Notes: a model not told the origin generated them from the letters alone. A stretch of 64,000 nt of DNA from Candidatus Thorarchaeota archaeon (GCA_016933575.1 JAFGAR010000081.1:128001-192000), one strand, 5' to 3'. Shown: positions 2,117 through 11,234, numbered from the stretch's first letter. Program-made: numbers and translations.

Positions 2117-2819
2117 AGATGATGCGTGTTGTCCAGAGCCTCAGTGCATCTGAGTCAACCTTCAGATTGGCTTCTAGATCATTGATTGTTAGTGCTCCCT
2201 CTCTGTATACTTTGATATTCAATGATTCTGTTTCTTCAGCTCTCTCAACGCCAATTATGGTGGAGTTTTCAGAGAGCTTGGATGGTCCTGCATCAATGTA
2301 TAGGTCCACCTCATCACCTAACTGCTCCAAGGCTACTGAAACATCAAAAGGACTTGCTCCTCCACTTCTATTTGCGCTGGTTCCTACTATTGGGCCTCCA
2401 ATCATACCTGCTATACCTCTTGGTACAATATGATTTGGGACTCGGATTGCAATTGAGTCTCTCCCTGCAGTAATATGTTCAGGAATTTCAGGTCTTGGTT
2501 TGACAATAAGCGTAAGAGCTCCTGGCCAGAACAGTTTTGCAATGACAGTTTCTAGGGTACCAAATTCATGATATACTTCACACTGTGAGATATCTGAAAA
2601 TAGAAGTGGCACTCCTAATTGACGGTCTCGTCTCTTGACTGAAATAAGTCGACTTAGAGCATCAGCATTTTGTGCATCACAGCCTAGCCCATAGCTTGTA
2701 TCAGTTGGATAGACGACAATGCCTCCATCTTTAATCACGTTTGCTGCCCTTTGGATGATGGAATCACAATCACTCAGATTCTCAATGCTCATTATCTCAG
2801 CTGTCAATTGACTTCCCAT
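2103..2819 (-). CDS. sua5: L-threonylcarbamoyladenylate synthase (YrdC/TsaC type, no SUA5 C-domain)
   Basis: GGIVVYPTDTSYGLGC, KRR, FWPGALTLI, IAIRVP, GTSANRSG; ATG at 2819 preferred as start. Confidence 0.92.
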   Translation of the reverse strand: MGSQLTAEIMSIENLSDCDSIIQRAANVIKDGGIVVYPTDTSYGLGCDAQNADALSRLISVKRRDRQLGVPLLFSDISQCEVYHEFGTLETVIAKLFWPGALTLIVKPRPEIPEHITAGRDSIAIRVPNHIVPRGIAGMIGGPIVGTSANRSGGASPFDVSVALEQLGDEVDLYIDAGPSKLSENSTIIGVERAEETESLNIKVYREGALTINDLEANLKVDSDALRLWTTRIIFADM

Positions 2820-2876
2820 TCTGAATCCTGCAAACATACATATGGCCCTTACGCTCCATGTTCATCAAGCGGAGGA

Positions 2877-3926
2877 ATAGAAATTTTCGGAGTAATCTTG
2901 GCTGCAGGCAAGGGCGAGCGAATGAACCCTCTCACCCTTGAGATTCCAAAGGCTCTTGTCTATGTTGCAGGTAAGACTCTCCTAGAATGGAGTCTAGAAC
3001 GTCTCTTTCTTTCCGGATGTAATGATATCATTGTAGCAACTGGTTGGAAGAGTGAACTAATCAAAGACGCATTAGACGCGATAAAAATGCCTTCAGTTGA
3101 AAAGACATCAGGATCAGTATCAATTATTGAAGTACCAGAATACGAACGAGGTCCCTTGCAGACATTTGTAACAGCAACAGGTATGGTCCATGGTTCTACC
3201 AACATCCTCAATCCTGTCGATCTGATTATCTCAATGAATGACGTCAAAGCAATCATATCCGCTCATCCAAAACATGACCAATATGCTGTTACCTTGGCAA
3301 TCGATTACGATAGCAATCGAGGAAGTGAGGTCTCTCTCGGTTCAGATGGCCAAATTCTAGCAATCAATCAAGAAATTCGAAAAGGCTCCAAGAAGGCAAA
3401 GAGTGCGCTGTTACTCACATTCTCTTCGGGAGTCATTGAGCTTTGCAAGAATGAGTTAGACCGTGGTGAGAGCCGAATCTTTCCCGTACTAAATAATATG
3501 ATACAAGTCAGGGATCATAAGGTACATGGGTATTCTGTCACCGGTATCTGGTATGATGTTGATACAATTCACGATGTATTGAGTGCTAACAAACATCTTC
3601 TTGGTTCTGTGATTAAGCAGAAACCCGACTCTGTGTATATTCCAGATGGTGATACAATGCAAATAGAAGACTTCCTATCCCTCGATTCTGGAATCCGTAT
3701 AGGTCGTGGTGTTCTCTTGAAAGGACCCTGTTTAATCGAAAAGAATTCATCAATAGGGGACAAATGCATCATTGGTCCTTACGTTAGCATGGCGGAAGAT
3801 ACGATTATCGGAGATAATAGTGAAGTTCAAAATACAGTCATCTTTGGTTCGTCCAATGTGCCCATCAACAGTCGAATTGATGGGACCATCATCTATCAAT
3901 CAAATTACTATCGAGAGGAGGCTTAG
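2877..3926 (+). CDS. sugar-phosphate nucleotidyltransferase with C-terminal left-handed beta-helix
   Basis: ILAAGKGERMNPLTLEIPKAL, WYDVDT, hexapeptide repeats; start codon uncertain (see findings). Confidence 0.85.
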   Translation: MEIFGVILAAGKGERMNPLTLEIPKALVYVAGKTLLEWSLERLFLSGCNDIIVATGWKSELIKDALDAIKMPSVEKTSGSVSIIEVPEYERGPLQTFVTATGMVHGSTNILNPVDLIISMNDVKAIISAHPKHDQYAVTLAIDYDSNRGSEVSLGSDGQILAINQEIRKGSKKAKSALLLTFSSGVIELCKNELDRGESRIFPVLNNMIQVRDHKVHGYSVTGIWYDVDTIHDVLSANKHLLGSVIKQKPDSVYIPDGDTMQIEDFLSLDSGIRIGRGVLLKGPCLIEKNSSIGDKCIIGPYVSMAEDTIIGDNSEVQNTVIFGSSNVPINSRIDGTIIYQSNYYREEA

Positions 3927-3929
3927 TAA

Positions 3930-4538
3930 ATGCCAAGTAAATTCCGCGTTCGGGGATTCTTTCGAGGAATTGTCCTTAGAATTGCCCGACCTCTTGCACG
4001 AGCTGGGGTCTCACCAAATTCCATTACCTATGCTAGTCTATTTTTTGCTCTCTGTGCATTTCTCGTGCTGCCGCTCACAGACTCTCCTATCCTTTTTGGA
4101 ATACTCGTCTTTGTCACAGGATTACTGGATGGCGTTGATGGAAGTGTAGCACGACTTACCGAGTCCTCATCTACTACTGGCGGACTAATCGACTCGGTTG
4201 TCGATAAAGCTTCTGAAGTACTGATCCTCACAGGAATTGCTCTTCGATACCAAGACGCTATCTTTCTTGGCCTTTCAGTTGAATTATGGGTGATCTTTGC
4301 AATTTTTGGATGGTTGATGACGAGCTACACGCGTGCACGCGCTGAGAGTCTTGAGGTGTCTGATCTGGATATCGGTGTAGGAGGGCGTTCTGAACGCTTA
4401 CTCACTCTAGTGATATTCTCAATCTTTGGATTTATTCTATGGGGCCTGCTTGTTGTTACAATAATGGGGTTTGCAACTGCTGGATACAGATTATATCACT
4501 ACAAACAGCAACTTTCTGCCCGAGAATCAAACAACTAG
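3930..4538 (+). CDS. CDP-alcohol phosphatidyltransferase (archaetidylinositol-phosphate synthase-like)
   Basis: SPNSIT, DGVDGSVAR...GGLIDSVVD signature, SYTRARAE. Confidence 0.9.
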   Translation: MPSKFRVRGFFRGIVLRIARPLARAGVSPNSITYASLFFALCAFLVLPLTDSPILFGILVFVTGLLDGVDGSVARLTESSSTTGGLIDSVVDKASEVLILTGIALRYQDAIFLGLSVELWVIFAIFGWLMTSYTRARAESLEVSDLDIGVGGRSERLLTLVIFSIFGFILWGLLVVTIMGFATAGYRLYHYKQQLSARESNN

Positions 4539-5035: not shown

Positions 5036-6049
5036 TCACTCTTCTAATACATCAATGATGTGCAAATTGCTACCTACTGCTTGCACAATCTCGTATCGAT
5101 TATCTCCATCTATATCCCCGGCGGCAACAATGGATTCCGTCGATTTCTTGGTTGTCTTGAGCGTGGTTTCCTCATTGATTCGATTTCCGATCAATGAGAG
5201 TATCGCAATTGTAGAGTTTGCATGACTCACAACCATCTGTCCCTGTTGATGGTCCAAATCCCAAAATTTACCCATTCTAATCGAGCTCACTGGACTTGGC
5301 GCTCGTATAGAATCTAGTTTTTCCATCGTACCTTTTACAAATCCGAATAGACTGAGTGTACGACCATCCGAGACAGTAAGTGTTTCATAATTCTCATCGT
5401 TGGTGATATCGCCTGTAGCTACTAGACCAACCTCACCACCAACACTGATCTTTGCTCGTTCATGTAGTCGATCATCTGCATATTGATAGATGTAAAAATA
5501 ACCCGAGTCATCTCCAAACACGAAACGACTGTACGGCATCCCCTTGGTCATCAGAGGTCGTATCGATAGTACGGGTCTCTCAAGTACCTTATGCGCGAGT
5601 TTATCGAGAGCAACATCATACCACCCATAACACCTCATACTACCATCACTGGTTGATACCACAACTTCAGAGCTCTCATCATCAAGGACGTTTAAGACTG
5701 CAATTGCTGTTGTTAGACTACCTAGAGGAGTTGATGCTTTGACACTAATACTATCATCCATGTACACAAATACGCGCAGGATGTTGTCAAGCCCCCCCAT
5801 TACAAAATCCGGTATACCATCGCCAGTCACATCTCCTATTCCGATGGCAGCTAATGGCGGGAGTCCTCCTATGTTACACCGCTCTTTGAGCGGTTTTTTA
5901 TCATCACGATTGAAATCATATACTCTTACATCGCCATTAAGCGTGGTAGTGATTATATTGGTCGTTCCATCTCTCTGTAGGTCCACAAGCTCGACAGATG
6001 TAATTGCTTCCTTGAAAGCAACTTTTGCAGCAATGTCTAGCTTAGTCAT
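5036..6049 (-). CDS. FG-GAP/VCBS-repeat beta-propeller without signal peptide
   Basis: Repeated GDxxGDGxxE/D blades (DLQRDG, GDVTGDGIPDF, GDITNDENYE, GDIDGDNRYEI). Confidence 0.8.
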   Translation of the reverse strand: MTKLDIAAKVAFKEAITSVELVDLQRDGTTNIITTTLNGDVRVYDFNRDDKKPLKERCNIGGLPPLAAIGIGDVTGDGIPDFVMGGLDNILRVFVYMDDSISVKASTPLGSLTTAIAVLNVLDDESSEVVVSTSDGSMRCYGWYDVALDKLAHKVLERPVLSIRPLMTKGMPYSRFVFGDDSGYFYIYQYADDRLHERAKISVGGEVGLVATGDITNDENYETLTVSDGRTLSLFGFVKGTMEKLDSIRAPSPVSSIRMGKFWDLDHQQGQMVVSHANSTIAILSLIGNRINEETTLKTTKKSTESIVAAGDIDGDNRYEIVQAVGSNLHIIDVLEE

Positions 6050-6149
6050 TATTCCGAGGGCCTCTTAAAATTGGAGCATGATGGAGTAGGTTGAGGTTCT
6101 TGATACCATTTAAGAGTTCTTAGATTGTTGCTAGTTCCCCTGAACTTAT

Positions 6150-6725
6150 GTGCTTAAGTCTGAGAATATGGGACTTGATAGTATGAGCAAAGAGGAACAA
6201 TTGCCAATCCTTGACACCAAAGAGTGGACCAGCACTCCAGAGACCGTTGCAGACGAACTCAGGTCTTTTGTTAAAGAATTCGAGTTGTTTACGCCTGAGC
6301 TCTTTGCTGAAGTCAATTTTCATCTCCTACGACAATCTGGTCTTACAAAAAGCAGCCGACAAGCATTGTGCGAAATATCCATCTTCAATAAGACTTGTCC
6401 CAAGTGTGAACTTCTGTACAGTGCCAAGAAATGTCCTCTCTGGTCCCGACTCTACAAAATAGTGACTTGGGATATAGTCGAAAGAGCGCCTCCTTGTATT
6501 CGATTAGCCTTTGCAAAAAAGACAATAAAGACTGTGACTAACTATCTTGTTGCTGTTAATCTGGTGAGCCCACCTTTTTTCAAATCCCGCGGAGCACCAT
6601 CCTGTAATGCAATGCGAAGATGGGGGTATTGCCATCCCAATGAATATTGCAAAGCAATGGAGACCGATAACACATTCGAATACAATGCTGCACGAGAACG
6701 AGTGAAATTATCACGGGCTCTCTAA
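6150..6725 (+). CDS. small Cys-rich protein with primase large subunit (PriL) C-terminal Fe-S-like motif
   Basis: PPC...PSCNAMRRWGYCHPNEYC...NTFEY plus an extra CPKC/CP cluster; start may be ATG 6168 or 6183. Confidence 0.6.
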   Translation: MLKSENMGLDSMSKEEQLPILDTKEWTSTPETVADELRSFVKEFELFTPELFAEVNFHLLRQSGLTKSSRQALCEISIFNKTCPKCELLYSAKKCPLWSRLYKIVTWDIVERAPPCIRLAFAKKTIKTVTNYLVAVNLVSPPFFKSRGAPSCNAMRRWGYCHPNEYCKAMETDNTFEYNAARERVKLSRAL

Positions 6726-6791
6726 TCAAAGGATTCAAGTCATGGCTTAAATACTGCTCCAGACCTATGAGAAGACACGGGGCAGGTCATT

Positions 6792-8300
6792 GTGATCGAC
6801 GAAATCAATGTTGAACATGTTCAACTCATTCGCTTGACTGGACTTAGAGAGGATCTTCTTCAAAATGCCCGTGTGGAGAATGGGACGTCTTGGAGTAATA
6901 TCTCTCAGACTATCAGTGAACATGAACGTATTATTTCAATGGGCGAAAGGCATAGTAGACAAAAAGCAATTCAAGATCCTGTTCATGGGGCGATTATTTT
7001 AGAACCCTGGGAACTCGACACGATTTCTACTTGGGAGATGCTCAGACTCAGATATGTAATGCAACTTGGCCCTGCTCACATAGTTTATCCTGGAGCCACG
7101 CATACACGCTTTCAACACTGTCTGGGAACTAACTTTCTTGCTCAGAAATCAATACGAGTTGTGAATTATTGCGAAGACCTTGATACAGCGTGTTTTGTCC
7201 CCTTCTCCGGTCTCCTTGATGATTATCAAAAGAAGCTATTCAGAGCTGCAGCATTACTTCATGATGTTGGTCATCCACCAACTTCTCACACAATAGAGTA
7301 CGCCCTAGAATCTTGGGCAAATCTTGACCACACAGACTTGGGCGAATTCCTGATTCTACATAGCGGTCTTACTGACGTACTCAAACAGAATGATATTGAA
7401 CCAATTGATGTTGTAAACATACTGAAGAAGCGTACGAAAGACCCGATTATGCTACTCTTGAATGAGTTTCTTGACCACCCCTTGGATATTGACAAGACCG
7501 ATTATCTCATCAGAGATGCGTATTTCAGTGGAGTCCAGCTCGGGGTCTTTCCCGCAGAACGTGTTTTACTTACCAATCGTGTAGTCCTCGATAAGAATGG
7601 GAAATATGTCCGTGCATTTATGTTGAAAGCCATCCATTCTCTGGAAGCCCTCATGTTAAGTCGGAATTGGATGTTCTCAGACCTCTATTTGCATCACGCA
7701 GTCAAACTGGCTGAGGCGCTCATTTCCAAAGCAACTTACTTCAGAATGGAAGAAGAATCTCTTACTAAGAATGAATGTATTGGATTCTTTACACGAATGA
7801 CAGACAGTGACCTATTTCGGTGGCTTTCAGATTCTGAAATTCCCTTTGTTAGGGAGTATATCTCACGAATAACATATCGACGACTCTTCAAAGTTGCTCT
7901 CTCACGACCCATTATCTCATTTGAGCCGGATGCTCAGAAAGAGATTCTCTCGATGAGAGATAATATCCAGCGGCTTCTCACTCTTGAGGATGAGTTGGCT
8001 GATAAGAGGGGGAGTGTTGTTGTAGATATTGTTATTCCAGAGTTAGGCGAGAAGCTCCTAAGCAAGATCCCACTCTTGATTGGTGGCGAACGGGGGTTCG
8101 ATCTTGTAGCGCTAAATGAACTCCAAGAGGGTCGCCCCCTATTGCAAACGCTGAAACAACAGACACATACAATTCCCTCAGTGCGAGTATATACTGACCC
8201 ATCTATTGCAAGTACTATTCGTAAGAAATTCGAAAAACGATTCCCATTAGCACATATGCCTGAGCATCGAGATGATGAATACGATTTGATTGAGTACTAA
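6792..8300 (+). CDS. HD-domain phosphohydrolase, SAMHD1/dNTP triphosphohydrolase family
   Basis: DPVHG, RLRYVMQLG..YPGATHTRFQHCLG, LLHDVGHPPTSH, DIDKTDYLIRD. Confidence 0.9.
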   Translation: MIDEINVEHVQLIRLTGLREDLLQNARVENGTSWSNISQTISEHERIISMGERHSRQKAIQDPVHGAIILEPWELDTISTWEMLRLRYVMQLGPAHIVYPGATHTRFQHCLGTNFLAQKSIRVVNYCEDLDTACFVPFSGLLDDYQKKLFRAAALLHDVGHPPTSHTIEYALESWANLDHTDLGEFLILHSGLTDVLKQNDIEPIDVVNILKKRTKDPIMLLLNEFLDHPLDIDKTDYLIRDAYFSGVQLGVFPAERVLLTNRVVLDKNGKYVRAFMLKAIHSLEALMLSRNWMFSDLYLHHAVKLAEALISKATYFRMEEESLTKNECIGFFTRMTDSDLFRWLSDSEIPFVREYISRITYRRLFKVALSRPIISFEPDAQKEILSMRDNIQRLLTLEDELADKRGSVVVDIVIPELGEKLLSKIPLLIGGERGFDLVALNELQEGRPLLQTLKQQTHTIPSVRVYTDPSIASTIRKKFEKRFPLAHMPEHRDDEYDLIEY

Positions 8301-8974
8301 AGCAAATGTTTGATACTCTCGCGAACCTTTGGAAATCCATACTCCATTTGGATTATTCCATAGATTGCCTCAATGAGGGTTCCTTTGTCATGTTCAATCT
8401 CTGACTTGCTTGGAGTCGCAGGGTCGAAATGTATCCTATGTTCATAGAGCTGCCATCGGTCGCAGAGGTCCGCCATATGCTGGTTACTGACAATCTCAGC
8501 TTTCTTCTGAGTCAACTGACCGACATCATCCAGATTATTCTGCCAGAGGCGGTATAGTACTCCCATTGAAATCGCTGCATCTCCAAGAAGTGCGAATACT
8601 TTGGCAATCTCACTGACCGATATCAGAGTTACAAACTCATCACTACTTAGAGGAACATCTTTCTCGTTTCGATATTGAATCTCTAGCTCCAAAAACAAGT
8701 TCTTAGTACTTGGTTGAAACATGGCAACTATGAGAAGTTCCTTATTTTTTATCTTGAAGCCGAGTGTTCTTTCAAGTTGTGGAGCAATTCGGTTCTTGAT
8801 ATAATCTGTCTTATCATGAATCTGGAGTATCTGTTCTTCCCATCGATTAAGCTTCTCTGCAAATCGAGTCTTGTTGAATGGATTCTCGTCTTTGGAATGA
8901 CGAATGATCTCTAGCAATTTATCTAACTTCTTCTCAATGTGAATTGGTTTCCATTCAAGGCTTTTCCGACTCAT
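8297..8974 (-). CDS. ribonuclease III domain protein (Mini-III-like, no dsRBD)
   Basis: LERTLGFKIKNKELL, FALLGDAA, GQLTQKKAEIVSN, GTLIEAIYG. Confidence 0.8.
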   Translation of the reverse strand: MSRKSLEWKPIHIEKKLDKLLEIIRHSKDENPFNKTRFAEKLNRWEEQILQIHDKTDYIKNRIAPQLERTLGFKIKNKELLIVAMFQPSTKNLFLELEIQYRNEKDVPLSSDEFVTLISVSEIAKVFALLGDAAISMGVLYRLWQNNLDDVGQLTQKKAEIVSNQHMADLCDRWQLYEHRIHFDPATPSKSEIEHDKGTLIEAIYGIIQMEYGFPKVRESIKHLL

Positions 8975-8987
8975 GATATCTCAACTC

Positions 8988-9770
8988 TCAATAGTAGCTG
9001 AGTTCAGCATTCGAAACATCATATCTAGTAACATGAAACGCAGTAATTGAATACTCTGTTGAAAGCTTAGCCATTGCAAGAGTAATCAACGACGGACCCA
9101 GAGTCAGGTCCATGACCATATCGTGGATGAATATGTTATCAATGATTGCTGCCTCCATAAAATCAACAGTCTGCTGTAAGTGACCGTATTCAGTTGCATC
9201 GTCTGTTCCTGTTACTTCATCAGGCACCTCAATCCACTCAGTAGTCCATCGTCTGAATGCATCATCGGGTATGAACCTATCAACAATTCTCGAAACACCT
9301 CTTGTCCAATGCCTTGCTTCTACAAAGACAAGCAATTTTCTTGGATTGAAATGAGGATTATTCGTCAACCACTGTACAAAGGGTCTTTGATCCTCAGGAC
9401 GGCTCAAAGAAGTAACATACAAAAGGGGTTTTGTTATCCCCAGAGCTCTACGCACCGGATGAATTGCTTTCGGTTCTAATTCAAATAGGCGGTATTGCGA
9501 TTGCTTCCAACTTACAATGATTCCAAGCTCCTCGAGTCTTGTAGTATTGTGATAGAGCTTGGGACTGGTAACCTCGACTTTCTCAATCTCTTTCTTACTT
9601 GCTCCTTCCACCATCTTCTGAGCCTTTATATCAGTGGCAATCTTCTCTCGCAGCTCTGCTCCCGTCTTCAATCCGCCTTCAAGTTGATCCAAGATAATCC
9701 TTCTCGCTCTTACTGTCTCTATCTCTTCCTTGACGAGTTCTTCAACAGTCTTGTTGAGCATTATAACCAT
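8988..9770 (-). CDS. winged-helix transcription regulator with C-terminal CARF-like Rossmann domain
   Basis: N-terminal wHTH (RRIILDQL..GLKTGAEL..KLYHNTTRLEELGII); C-terminal LLYVTSLS, NPRKLLVF and MVMDLTLGPSLITLAM resembling CARF motifs; start may be 9761. Confidence 0.65.
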   Translation of the reverse strand: MVIMLNKTVEELVKEEIETVRARRIILDQLEGGLKTGAELREKIATDIKAQKMVEGASKKEIEKVEVTSPKLYHNTTRLEELGIIVSWKQSQYRLFELEPKAIHPVRRALGITKPLLYVTSLSRPEDQRPFVQWLTNNPHFNPRKLLVFVEARHWTRGVSRIVDRFIPDDAFRRWTTEWIEVPDEVTGTDDATEYGHLQQTVDFMEAAIIDNIFIHDMVMDLTLGPSLITLAMAKLSTEYSITAFHVTRYDVSNAELSYY

Positions 9771-9924
9771 TCATCCGCGGATATATTAGCTAGTAATTAC
9801 AAGTACTAACCTTTTATACTTATCTAATATAATGTCGAATTAGAGCCTAAAAATGGTCCAAAAAGACGATACAATATACATTCCTAAGATACTTTTCGAA
9901 ATAATCGACACCCGTCCGACGAAC

Positions 9925-9933
9925 CCTTAAATA
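9925..9933 (+). promoter_or_regulatory. candidate TATA box of the actin gene
   Basis: CCTTAAATA about 105 nt upstream of the actin ATG; position only. Confidence 0.4.
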
Positions 9934-10038
9934 GAATTTGGCAGAAGCCTGTACTAGCAAGGAGCTTCAAAGCTCTGAACTGACGAATCTGAATTTCTGG
10001 ATTTGTCCAAAACTAAATTAAAAAACGAGGACCGAAAA

Positions 10039-11178
10039 ATGGCTGAAGACGAGTTTCTTGGCGCAAAGCCGATTGTCATTGACAACGGCACAGGTTTGAG
10101 CAAGAACGGATACGCCGGCGAAGATCAGCCACGAAGTGTCTGGCCTACCTTGATTGGCTACCCACGATACGAGTCAATCATGACTGATGTTGATCACTAC
10201 ACACGTGACTACTACATTGGTGAAGAGGCTATCAATCTACGTGGTGTCCTACGCCTGGTTTACCCGATCTCTCATGGAATCGTAGAAGACTGGGATGCAA
10301 TCGAGAAGATTTGGAGTTACACCTTCTATAACGACTTGAAGGTAGATCCCAGCGAGAACCCGGTGCTCCTCACTGAAGCACCATTCAACCCCAGAGAGAA
10401 CAGAGAACGCATGGCCTCCGTAATGTTTGACAACTTCGGAGTACCTGCAGTATACGTTGCCACACAGGCAGTACTGTCACTGTACGCATCTGGTCGAACA
10501 ACCGGTCTGGTCATCGACTCTGGTGACGGTGTGACCCACATAGTACCAATCTATGAGGGCTTCTCAATCAATCACGCTATCCGCAGAATTGACTTGGCTG
10601 GAAGAGACATCACTGAATACCTCCGCAGACTACTCAGGCAGAGAGGATACTCCTTCGTGAGTGGTGCAGAGAAAGAGATTGTCAGAGACATCAAAGAGAA
10701 GCTCTGTTATGTAGCTCTCGATCCCGAGAGGGAGCGAACAGTCGCTGACAAGGCTGGTGTCGACAAGCCCTACATGCTCCCTGATGGTGAAGTCATCACT
10801 GTCGGTGCAGAGCGATTCCAGGGTCCAGAGTTGTTCTTCAACCCAAGTGCAATTGGTCTTGACACAATGCCTCTCGATGAGCACATTGTCGAGTCAATCA
10901 AGGCTTGTGATGTCGACTTGCGACGTGACCTATACGCCAACATCGTATTGTCCGGTGGCTCAACCATGTTCCCAGGACTCAAGGAGAGACTCCACAAGGA
11001 GATCACCGAACTAGTCCCAGAGAACATCGAAGTCCGAATCATTGCTCCTCCAGAGAGACAGTACTCTGTCTGGATTGGTGGTAGCATTCTTGGCTCACTC
11101 AAGACATTCCAGAAGATGTGGGTGTCAAAGAAGGAGTTCGAAGAAGTCGGACCCGAAGTGATACACCGCTGTATCTAG
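10039..11178 (+). CDS. Asgard actin
   Basis: [76 protein letters not shown]; ATG 10039 follows GAGG RBS; strong C-ending codon bias. Confidence 0.98.
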
Positions 11179-11194
11179 TACATACACAGTTTAA

Positions 11195-11234
11195 CGAAGG
11201 TGGGCTTCGTGCCCCCTTCGCTCTCTTGTTTTTG
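11195..11234 (+). terminator. hairpin plus pyrimidine/T tract after actin
   Basis: CGAAGG-T-GGGC-TTCGT-GCCC-CCTTCG followed by CTCTCTTGTTTTTG. Confidence 0.7.

Follow-up and report, generated by a model that had tools for sequence, protein, structure and literature searches.

A predicted winged-helix CARF regulator encoded divergently from actin in Asgard archaea

The locus described here lies in a stretch of Candidatus Thorarchaeota archaeon DNA (GCA_016933575.1 JAFGAR010000081.1:128001-192000; contig C57 of genome G000), 64,000 nt in length, which is referred to as the window. Within it, the gene for eukaryote-like actin is divergent from that of a protein predicted to combine a winged helix-turn-helix (wHTH) with a CARF sensor domain, and the two genes share a control region. 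This actin-regulator pair is the core of the locus and is old within the Asgard archaea, and its conservation makes it a good candidate for an actin switch. An earlier note on this DNA had tentatively joined six genes at 5036-11234 into a single system sensing nucleotides and controlling RNA and deoxynucleoside triphosphates (dNTPs); all open reading frames (ORFs) are present where that note placed them, and the features are as follows:

5036-6049, minus strand: beta-propeller protein, FG-GAP/BBS7-like, 337 aa (Pfam FG-GAP_3 1.1e-8; Beta-prop_BBS7 1e-6, narrowly above cut-off)
6183-6725 (ORF as listed 6150-6725), plus strand: Cys-rich protein with 8 invariant Cys (family alignment; no PDB or Pfam relative)
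6792-8300, plus strand: HD phosphohydrolase of the SAMHD1/EF1143 family (Pfam HD and HD_assoc_2; PDB profile matches)
8297-8974, minus strand: RNase III-domain protein without a double-stranded RNA-binding domain (dsRBD), 225 aa (Pfam Ribonuclease_3 3.9e-9)
8988-9770, minus strand: wHTH-CARF protein of the CARF_m5 family, 260 aa (PADLOC PDLC01987 at 5.3e-22)
9771-10038, no strand: shared divergent control region, 268 nt, with five conserved elements (20-species alignment)
10039-11178, plus strand: actin (Asgard actin; Pfam Actin E 8.8e-133)

Layout of the locus and conservation of the regulator-actin pair

Profile and fold searches agree with the family labels previously given to actin, the wHTH-CARF protein, the RNase III domain, the SAMHD1-like HD hydrolase and the BBS-like propeller. 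The HD and RNase III genes overlap tail-to-tail by 4 nt, and the RNase III gene is separated by a 13-nt gap from the wHTH-CARF gene upstream of it on the same strand. The identity of actin is unambiguous at the E-value listed, and the protein shows 95-99% identity within the genus and 64-89% identity to the actins of other Asgard classes. Its start is likely ATG 10039 and not the TTG at 10003 of the ORF listing. The ATG is preceded by GAGGAC at 10027-10032, and metatranscriptome contigs of close relatives span 10036-11233 with a 54-64-nt 5' leader ending in GAGGACCGAA; because the leaders of these RNAs end in GAGGACCGAA just before the ATG, the intergenic region is placed at 9771-10038, and its 268 nt accord with the roughly 270 nt estimated before.

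The wHTH-CARF protein was found in all 24 other genomes of the same genus, and in the same-genus loci compared (20/20) the regulator gene divergently adjoins actin and has RNase III downstream of it. The pattern extends through the Thor family, which is equated with Thorarchaeota because that is how its nearest database proteins are named: in the other loci of this family, representing at least 14 genera, actin is divergently adjacent in 18 of 18, at a regulator identity of only 38-50%. Beyond this family, 10 more of the sampled families have full-length regulator homologs with 20-27% identity to the window protein, which brings the total to 11 of 27. Homologs are present in 31 named species genomes from Odin, Frey, Jord, Baldr and Hermod and from some metagenome-assembled genomes (MAGs) labelled Hod or Promethearchaeota, and actin is the divergent neighbour of the regulator in 26 of these 31, at the same 20-27% identity; the five exceptions comprise four genomes of the Jord group and one contig edge.

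The flanks of the pair are less constant. Among the eight distant loci fetched first, six have actin as the divergent neighbour of the regulator, and the gene on the regulator's other side varies by lineage, being ComB, an aminotransferase, a Ras-like GTPase or, in the sister family, the propeller; the RNase III, HD and Cys-rich genes lie beside the regulator in none of the eight. Because the other-side genes vary in this way, it is the pair rather than the neighbourhood that is conserved. The earlier note had allowed for chance juxtaposition, and for the regulator and actin this can be set aside, since their pairing recurs across many Asgard families as the other flanks change. The neighbourhood analysis that it proposed thus finds the pair again across Asgard lineages and the remaining genes co-located within the Thor family only, with the propeller also in the sister family.

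Contigs of many MAGs (L029, L031, L033, L035, L048-L053, L055 and L056) break within actin, probably because assembly fails at so conserved a gene, and as a result MAG counts of actin neighbours are underestimates. In the Jord loci L023:6806-9389, L026:1034-3578 and L025:7200-7958, the regulator gene is found between a hexapeptide-repeat transferase gene and a convergent gene for ComB (2-phosphosulfolactate phosphatase); ComB is also the convergent neighbour of the regulator in one lineage (f13) that keeps the actin adjacency.

Fold of the regulator and elements of the control region

The 260-aa regulator has no match in Pfam or NCBIfam. A profile of 16 homologs compared with the PDB matched the CARF domain of the nuclease Cdn1 with its C-terminal half (E 2e-4) and PadR/Pex winged-helix proteins with its N-terminal half (7e-4). 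An AF2 model computed from the homolog alignment has a pLDDT of 88.4 and a pTM of 0.85, and when it was searched against the PDB with Foldseek, the top 29 matches were all CARF proteins at probability 1.0. In comparisons with VIA, an independent all-against-all aligner, residues 113-260 gave Z-scores of 13.3, 12.3 and 12.0 to VC1899, Csm6 and Csa3, respectively, within a range of 13.3-11.8 across VC1899, Csm6, Can2, Csa3, Cdn1 and Card1, and residues 1-112 gave Z about 10 to ArsR/PadR/RosR repressors. The protein can be divided into a wHTH domain (residues ~8-112), with a charged insert at ~45-66, and a CARF domain (~113-260). The PADLOC profile CARF_m5 (PDLC01987) matches the window protein at E 5.3e-22, with residues 15-248 aligned to profile positions 4-187 of 195, and an Odin homolog at 2.4e-80. 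As modelled, the C-terminal domain has the CARF fold and belongs to the CARF superfamily by fold. The wHTH-CARF label is thereby upheld by PDB profile matches, AF2 model, Foldseek, VIA and PADLOC alike, and the CARF nature of the C-terminal domain, on which the earlier note had made its proposal depend, is borne out by the Z-scores of 13.3-11.8 to CARF folds.

The regulator family is tiny, with 18 matches among 1.8 billion representatives, and is Asgard-only as judged by the names of the matching proteins, which are annotated as 'hypothetical protein', 'HTH regulator' or 'PadR family'; through the PADLOC profile it is already catalogued as a minor CARF family. CARF motif II, of the form D-x-T-x-G-x-K/R, reads DLTLGPS in the window protein and DVTDGTR in distant homologs. 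The Thor consensus is DL..GP, from which the basic residue is absent and in which D221 is the sole invariant position.

That the protein is a ring nuclease or another CARF enzyme degrading cyclic oligoadenylates (a Crn1-like CARF plus wHTH), and not a transcription factor, is scarcely credible. The ring nucleases Sso2081, Sis0455 and SSO1393 do appear among the fold matches, but they rank below Csm6, Card1, VC1899 and Csa3. The two domains come in the opposite order, Cas10 was not found in most host genomes, and the N-terminal domain matches the DNA-binding PadR/ArsR repressors at Z about 10.

An alignment of 20 same-genus intergenic regions revealed invariant blocks at five positions of the shared control region:

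9777-9797: promoter block of the CARF gene, GCGGATATATTAGCTAGTAAT, TATA-containing and adjoining the regulator start
9816-9827 and 9889-9900: two direct boxes ATACTTwTCGAA, candidate operators
9873-9881: conserved element AATATACAT
9926-9934: B recognition element (BRE)/TATA of actin, CTTAAATAG
9961-9976: palindrome GGAGCTTCAAAGCTCT in the actin leader

The block at 9777-9797 is consistent with a leaderless regulator transcript, and the context of the actin TATA, ACAAGG-CTTAAATA, is kept across Thor genera. The box pattern ATACTTwTCGAA occurs five times in the window versus 1.35 expected, and the copies at 9816-9827 and 9889-9900 are the only non-coding ones; the other three are within ORFs and were treated as chance occurrences. 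The genus box ATACTTNTCGAA was considered as a pan-Asgard operator and rejected, as it is not kept in other Thor genera. In other lineages, the stretch 20-60 nt upstream of the actin TATA contains strong palindromes peculiar to each lineage, examples being ATCGATATAGATGATATCGTCTATATCGAT in Baldr, a palindrome with 17-bp arms in the sister family and CATCGCTATCAgTGATAACGTTGATAGAGATG in Hermod, and these share a loose half-site flavour, ATAGATGAT / ATACATCAT. The conserved blocks and palindromes are candidate operators that may have diverged together with the regulator. A scan for bacterial-type promoters and terminators performed no better than on shuffled sequence, and such signals are not relevant to archaeal promoters.

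The RNase III gene and the genes beyond it

The RNase III protein has a two-helix N-terminal extension (residues ~13-60), followed from ~60 by the RNase III domain with an insert before its LALLGDA signature. In the AF2 model (pLDDT 91), which is all-helical, the chain stops after the RNase III domain, without a dsRBD. The family profile matched Drosha RIIIDa/b at 6e-17 and a bacterial RNase III (C. jejuni) at 1.4e-11 in the PDB, human Drosha being the best solved sequence relative of this dsRBD-less family. VIA fold scores for the model are Z 14.8-13.9 for canonical RNase III (3o2r 14.8), about 13 for Dicer and 8.0 for Mini-III. Of the earlier designation as a Mini-III-type RNase, the architecture stands, i.e., an RNase III domain lacking a dsRBD, and the assignment to the Mini-III family does not (profile E 0.33; Z 8.0 against 14.8). 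The signature D132 and the catalytic E202 are invariant in 24 sequences of the family. In a hidden Markov model (HMM) alignment to Drosha, the two accessory acidic positions, equivalent to Aquifex E40 and D107, are Ala128 and Thr199, and the four acidic metal ligands (E40, D44, D107 and E110 in Aquifex numbering) are not all present in the window enzyme; Drosha RIIIDa itself carries Asn at the D107 position in the same alignment.

This family is present in 43/43 Thor-family genomes, and in each of the 38 Thor loci compared its gene directly follows that of the regulator. The regulator stop overlaps the RNase III start by 4 nt in many of the Thor genera. The two-gene unit that had been proposed is therefore an operon throughout the Thor family, and gene content and spacing identify RNase III as a Thor-family addition to the regulator gene, predicted to be translationally coupled to it. 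RNase III homologs elsewhere occur as a sporadic, stand-alone 228-aa gene, 30-37% identical and with unrelated neighbours, in two other Asgard families (L078:4387-5073, L079:1484-2170, L084:1568-2251 and L085:2066-2752); the neighbours are thiolase, MFS, FTHFS, Cdc6 or VWA genes.

Next to the operon, the HD protein matches Pfam HD (5.9e-8) and HD_assoc_2 (2.6e-17), and in the PDB it matches 2hek (4.5e-32), EF1143 (2e-27) and SAMHD1 (about 1e-20), the H..HD..D residues that bind metal being aligned; the segments HTRFxH, LLHDxGHPP and DxxDYLxRD are found in the alignment to 2hek. Its gene converges on RNase III in most Thor loci, and is absent in L008, L009 and L061 and decayed in L062. Within the Thor family, the Cys-rich gene is always just upstream of HD on the same strand. 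The start of its product is probably at 6183, as the Atlas sequence begins at residue 12 of the listed ORF, and the resulting protein of 180 aa has eight invariant cysteines in two groups of four in the family alignment. With the family profile, no chain of the PDB reached E <= 10 and Pfam offered no relevant family, and a protein Atlas search with the Cys-rich protein gave a best score of 0.86, which is uninformative. The sole trace of PriL is an NCBIfam match of E 0.08 over 30 residues, and the label of a mini PriL-type Fe-S protein is unsupported.

The propeller was detected in 44/44 Thor-order genomes (f1 43/43, f2 1/1); at E <= 1e-8, no match came from any other family. The sister-family ortholog (L021:8723-9700) passes BBS2_Mid at 4.6e-9 and directly follows the wHTH-CARF gene. 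The propeller is cytoplasmic, and each Thor genome also encodes a 770-800-aa paralog elsewhere.

Eighteen loci spanning 14 or more Thor genera retain the gene order unk139 / propeller / Cys > HD > / < RNase III < regulator / actin, with protein identities of 38-60%. As a control, the genes further out were compared: the same Thor loci also keep the next four genes leftward, encoding a CDP-alcohol transferase, an NTP-transferase/hexapeptide protein, Sua5 and a THUMP protein, and to the right of actin no gene is kept across the Thor loci compared. In the window, the NTP-transferase/hexapeptide gene and then the CDP-alcohol phosphatidyltransferase gene are located at 2751-4538 (plus strand), a pair conserved within the Thor synteny block. 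Because the housekeeping genes leftward, lipid-synthesis genes among them, are also kept, the conserved six-gene order reflects block synteny and not a module.

It is consequently highly improbable that all six genes form one nucleotide-sensing, RNA- and dNTP-control system. What speaks for such a system is that the gene order persists in the 18 Thor loci, which represent 14 genera or more, with proteins 40-60% identical; however, the block extends further left into the genes for the CDP-alcohol transferase, NTP-transferase, Sua5 and THUMP proteins, four loci lack HD or carry a decayed copy, the HD, Cys-rich and propeller genes never accompany the pair outside the Thor order, and the similarity to PriL is not reproducible. 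The single-module proposal does not hold, as HD and the Cys-rich protein are kept beside the pair only in the Thor family, and the propeller there and in the sister family, all three inside a longer synteny block. The proposed link to dNTP control is left unsupported, because HD lies in that block and is lost or decayed in several genomes. From their distribution, these three proteins appear to be neighbours through family-level synteny.

A candidate actin switch and its relation to known systems

We give slightly better than even credence to a reading of these sequences in which a ligand-sensing regulator, acting as repressor or activator, would work on the shared region and control both actin and its own operon. 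A wHTH-CARF dimer would bind the conserved boxes in the 268-bp region, the bound regulator would set the transcription of actin and of its own operon, and this regulation would follow the occupancy of the CARF pocket by a small molecule. In the Thor family, the dsRBD-less RNase III would be made together with the regulator because the two genes are translationally coupled, and would probably perform RNA processing tied to the same signal.

Several observations weigh against this reading. With the basic residue of CARF motif II lost, the Thor regulators may bind no ligand or a different one. Motif tests yielded no single operator motif common to all lineages that beat the controls: a TCGA-pair or CGAT..ATCG pattern, tried as a shared motif, was present in 12/54 regions versus a control mean of 4.8 and a maximum of 12, and a 9-mer enrichment in non-Thor regions, at 13/17, barely exceeded shuffled maxima of 9-11; both were rejected. 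In the window's own genus the upstream palindrome is degenerate. No full-length copy of the regulator was found in 16 of the 27 sampled families, which mostly have actin, so that actin does not need the regulator, and in the Jord group the regulator sits away from actin. Since its homologs stand alone elsewhere, the RNase may be no more than a housekeeping enzyme carried along in the operon. Finally, four metatranscriptome runs returned only actin-coding pieces from relatives, with the regulator and RNase III uncovered, and are uninformative either way.

Some of these points fit an alternative in which the wHTH-CARF protein and RNase III constitute an auto-controlled housekeeping RNA-processing operon, and actin shares its bidirectional promoter for historical or expression-level reasons without being regulated. 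In the genus alignment, the strongest block is the one adjoining the start of the regulator itself (9777-9797); the RNase III family, found in 43/43 genomes of the Thor family and standing alone in other families, looks like housekeeping; and the Jord group keeps the regulator without adjacent actin. Outside the Thor family, however, there is no RNase III or other conserved gene downstream of the regulator, yet the actin adjacency persists at 20-27% identity, and the strongest palindromes of other lineages lie near the actin TATA, not at the regulator start. We regard this alternative as unlikely.

Concerning the ligand, CARF sensor domains are otherwise known from antiviral cyclic-oligoadenylate signalling. 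No CRISPR array was seen within the 64-kb window, as had been stated before, and the only Cas10 match of the genome is on a different contig, C76. There, a type III-D-like CRISPR-Cas effector locus (L086, 2758-12996) comprises Cas6, four Csm3/Cas7-like proteins (one of them a 604-aa fusion), Cas5-IIId, a divergently encoded CARF4-PD-D/ExK (Can-like) nuclease and a Cas10 of 831 aa with GGDD at residue 588. Because the genome carries this locus, cyclic oligoadenylates may exist in this cell. Across genomes, a Cas10 palm domain was detected in 8/43 of the Thor family, where the regulator is in 42/43; in 0/14 other genomes of the same genus versus 14/14 for the regulator; and in 0/19, 0/3 and 0/3 genomes of the families f12, f13 and f21, where the regulator is in 14/19, 3/3 and 2/3, respectively. 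These counts come from incomplete MAGs, and a zero means not found rather than absent. The phyletic pattern argues against a dependence of the regulator on cyclic oligoadenylates. The description of the locus as CRISPR-independent is thus apt for its location and phyletic pattern, with the reservation that the genome does have a possible cyclic-oligoadenylate source in the type III-D-like locus on C76.

Shorter CARF_m5-like matches, covering profile positions ~50-229, are encoded within a few kb of Cas10 genes in several Asgard genomes (G186:C70, G095:C100, G053:C379, G063:C1 at about 2.69 Mb, G030:C4 and G101:C49). Given their position beside Cas10, these partial matches suggest a CRISPR-associated CARF_m5 branch as either the ancestor or the sister of the actin-linked one.

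These data also bear on the possibility that cyclic oligoadenylates made by type III CRISPR bind the CARF domain and switch the expression of actin and RNase III in a dormancy or defence response. The GGDD Cas10 and the CARF4-PD-D/ExK nuclease of the genome's own type III-D-like locus on C76 would suit it, and the partial CARF_m5-like paralogs beside Cas10 in several Asgard genomes make a cyclic-oligoadenylate-sensing ancestry of the family plausible. We nevertheless consider it very unlikely, as Cas10 was not found in 14 other genomes of the same genus or in whole families that keep the pair, the Thor proteins are without the basic residue of motif II, and the locus is core and syntenic, not island-like. 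A more specific form of the actin-switch reading, in which a CARF sensor was co-opted as a CRISPR-independent switch and the Thor RNase III serves as its post-transcriptional arm, for example by cutting the conserved, hairpin-forming palindrome at 9961-9976 in the actin leader, appears quite improbable.

We know of no account of how the eukaryote-like cytoskeleton is controlled in Asgard archaea. A search of the literature on lokiactin and Asgard actin with CARF, winged helix or divergent transcription found no paper linking CARF_m5 to actin, although coverage was incomplete and this does not prove absence. CARF-wHTH transcription factors (Csa3) and the PADLOC profile of the family are already known. 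The present analysis adds the conserved blocks mapped in the 268-bp region, the type III locus in the genome, the finding that the RNase groups with canonical RNase III, Drosha and Dicer and not with Mini-III, and the control by which HD, Cys-rich protein and propeller are identified as synteny neighbours, which prevents the follow-up of an over-broad 'system'. A dedicated regulator kept beside actin across classes offers a concrete and cheap test with the protein, the 268-bp fragment and candidate ligands, and if the actin-switch reading is true, it would clearly exemplify a CARF sensor with a role other than antiviral defence. The RNase III coupled to the regulator specifically in Thor, which among proteins of solved structure is nearest in sequence to Drosha and bacterial RNase III, provides a handle on the poorly known processing of double-stranded RNA in archaea.

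Compared with known systems, the window's HD protein resembles the SAMHD1/EF1143 dNTP triphosphohydrolase family in its predicted HD and HD_assoc_2 domains and H..HD..D residues. The RNase shares with B. subtilis Mini-III (MrnC, PDB 4oun) a catalytic RNase III domain without a dsRBD, but is not a member of that family by homology, because the match is far weaker than to canonical enzymes (profile E 0.33 versus 6e-17 and 1.4e-11; Z 8.0 versus 14.8). With canonical class 1 RNase III, Drosha and Dicer it has in common the catalytic fold (Z 14.8 to 13) and the signature Asp and Glu, and it differs from them by the lack of a dsRBD, the N-terminal two-helix extension, the insert before the signature, and Ala128 and Thr199. 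The regulator matches the PADLOC CARF_m5 profile over nearly its whole length, whereas the Thor members form a divergent branch in which motif II is degenerate and additional inserts are present. Another known system close to the regulator is Csa3 (Csa3a/Csa3b of Sulfolobales). Csa3 is encoded at CRISPR-cas loci, while the window regulator is not, has actin as its partner gene and belongs to a family mostly found in genomes where Cas10 was not detected; the order of domains is also reversed, with CARF N-terminal and wHTH C-terminal in Csa3 and the wHTH first in the window protein. In both, however, a CARF sensor is fused to a winged-helix DNA-binding domain (Z 12.0 to the Csa3-cA4 complex, 6wxq), and by analogy the presumed logic would be the same, i.e., ligand-gated control of transcription.

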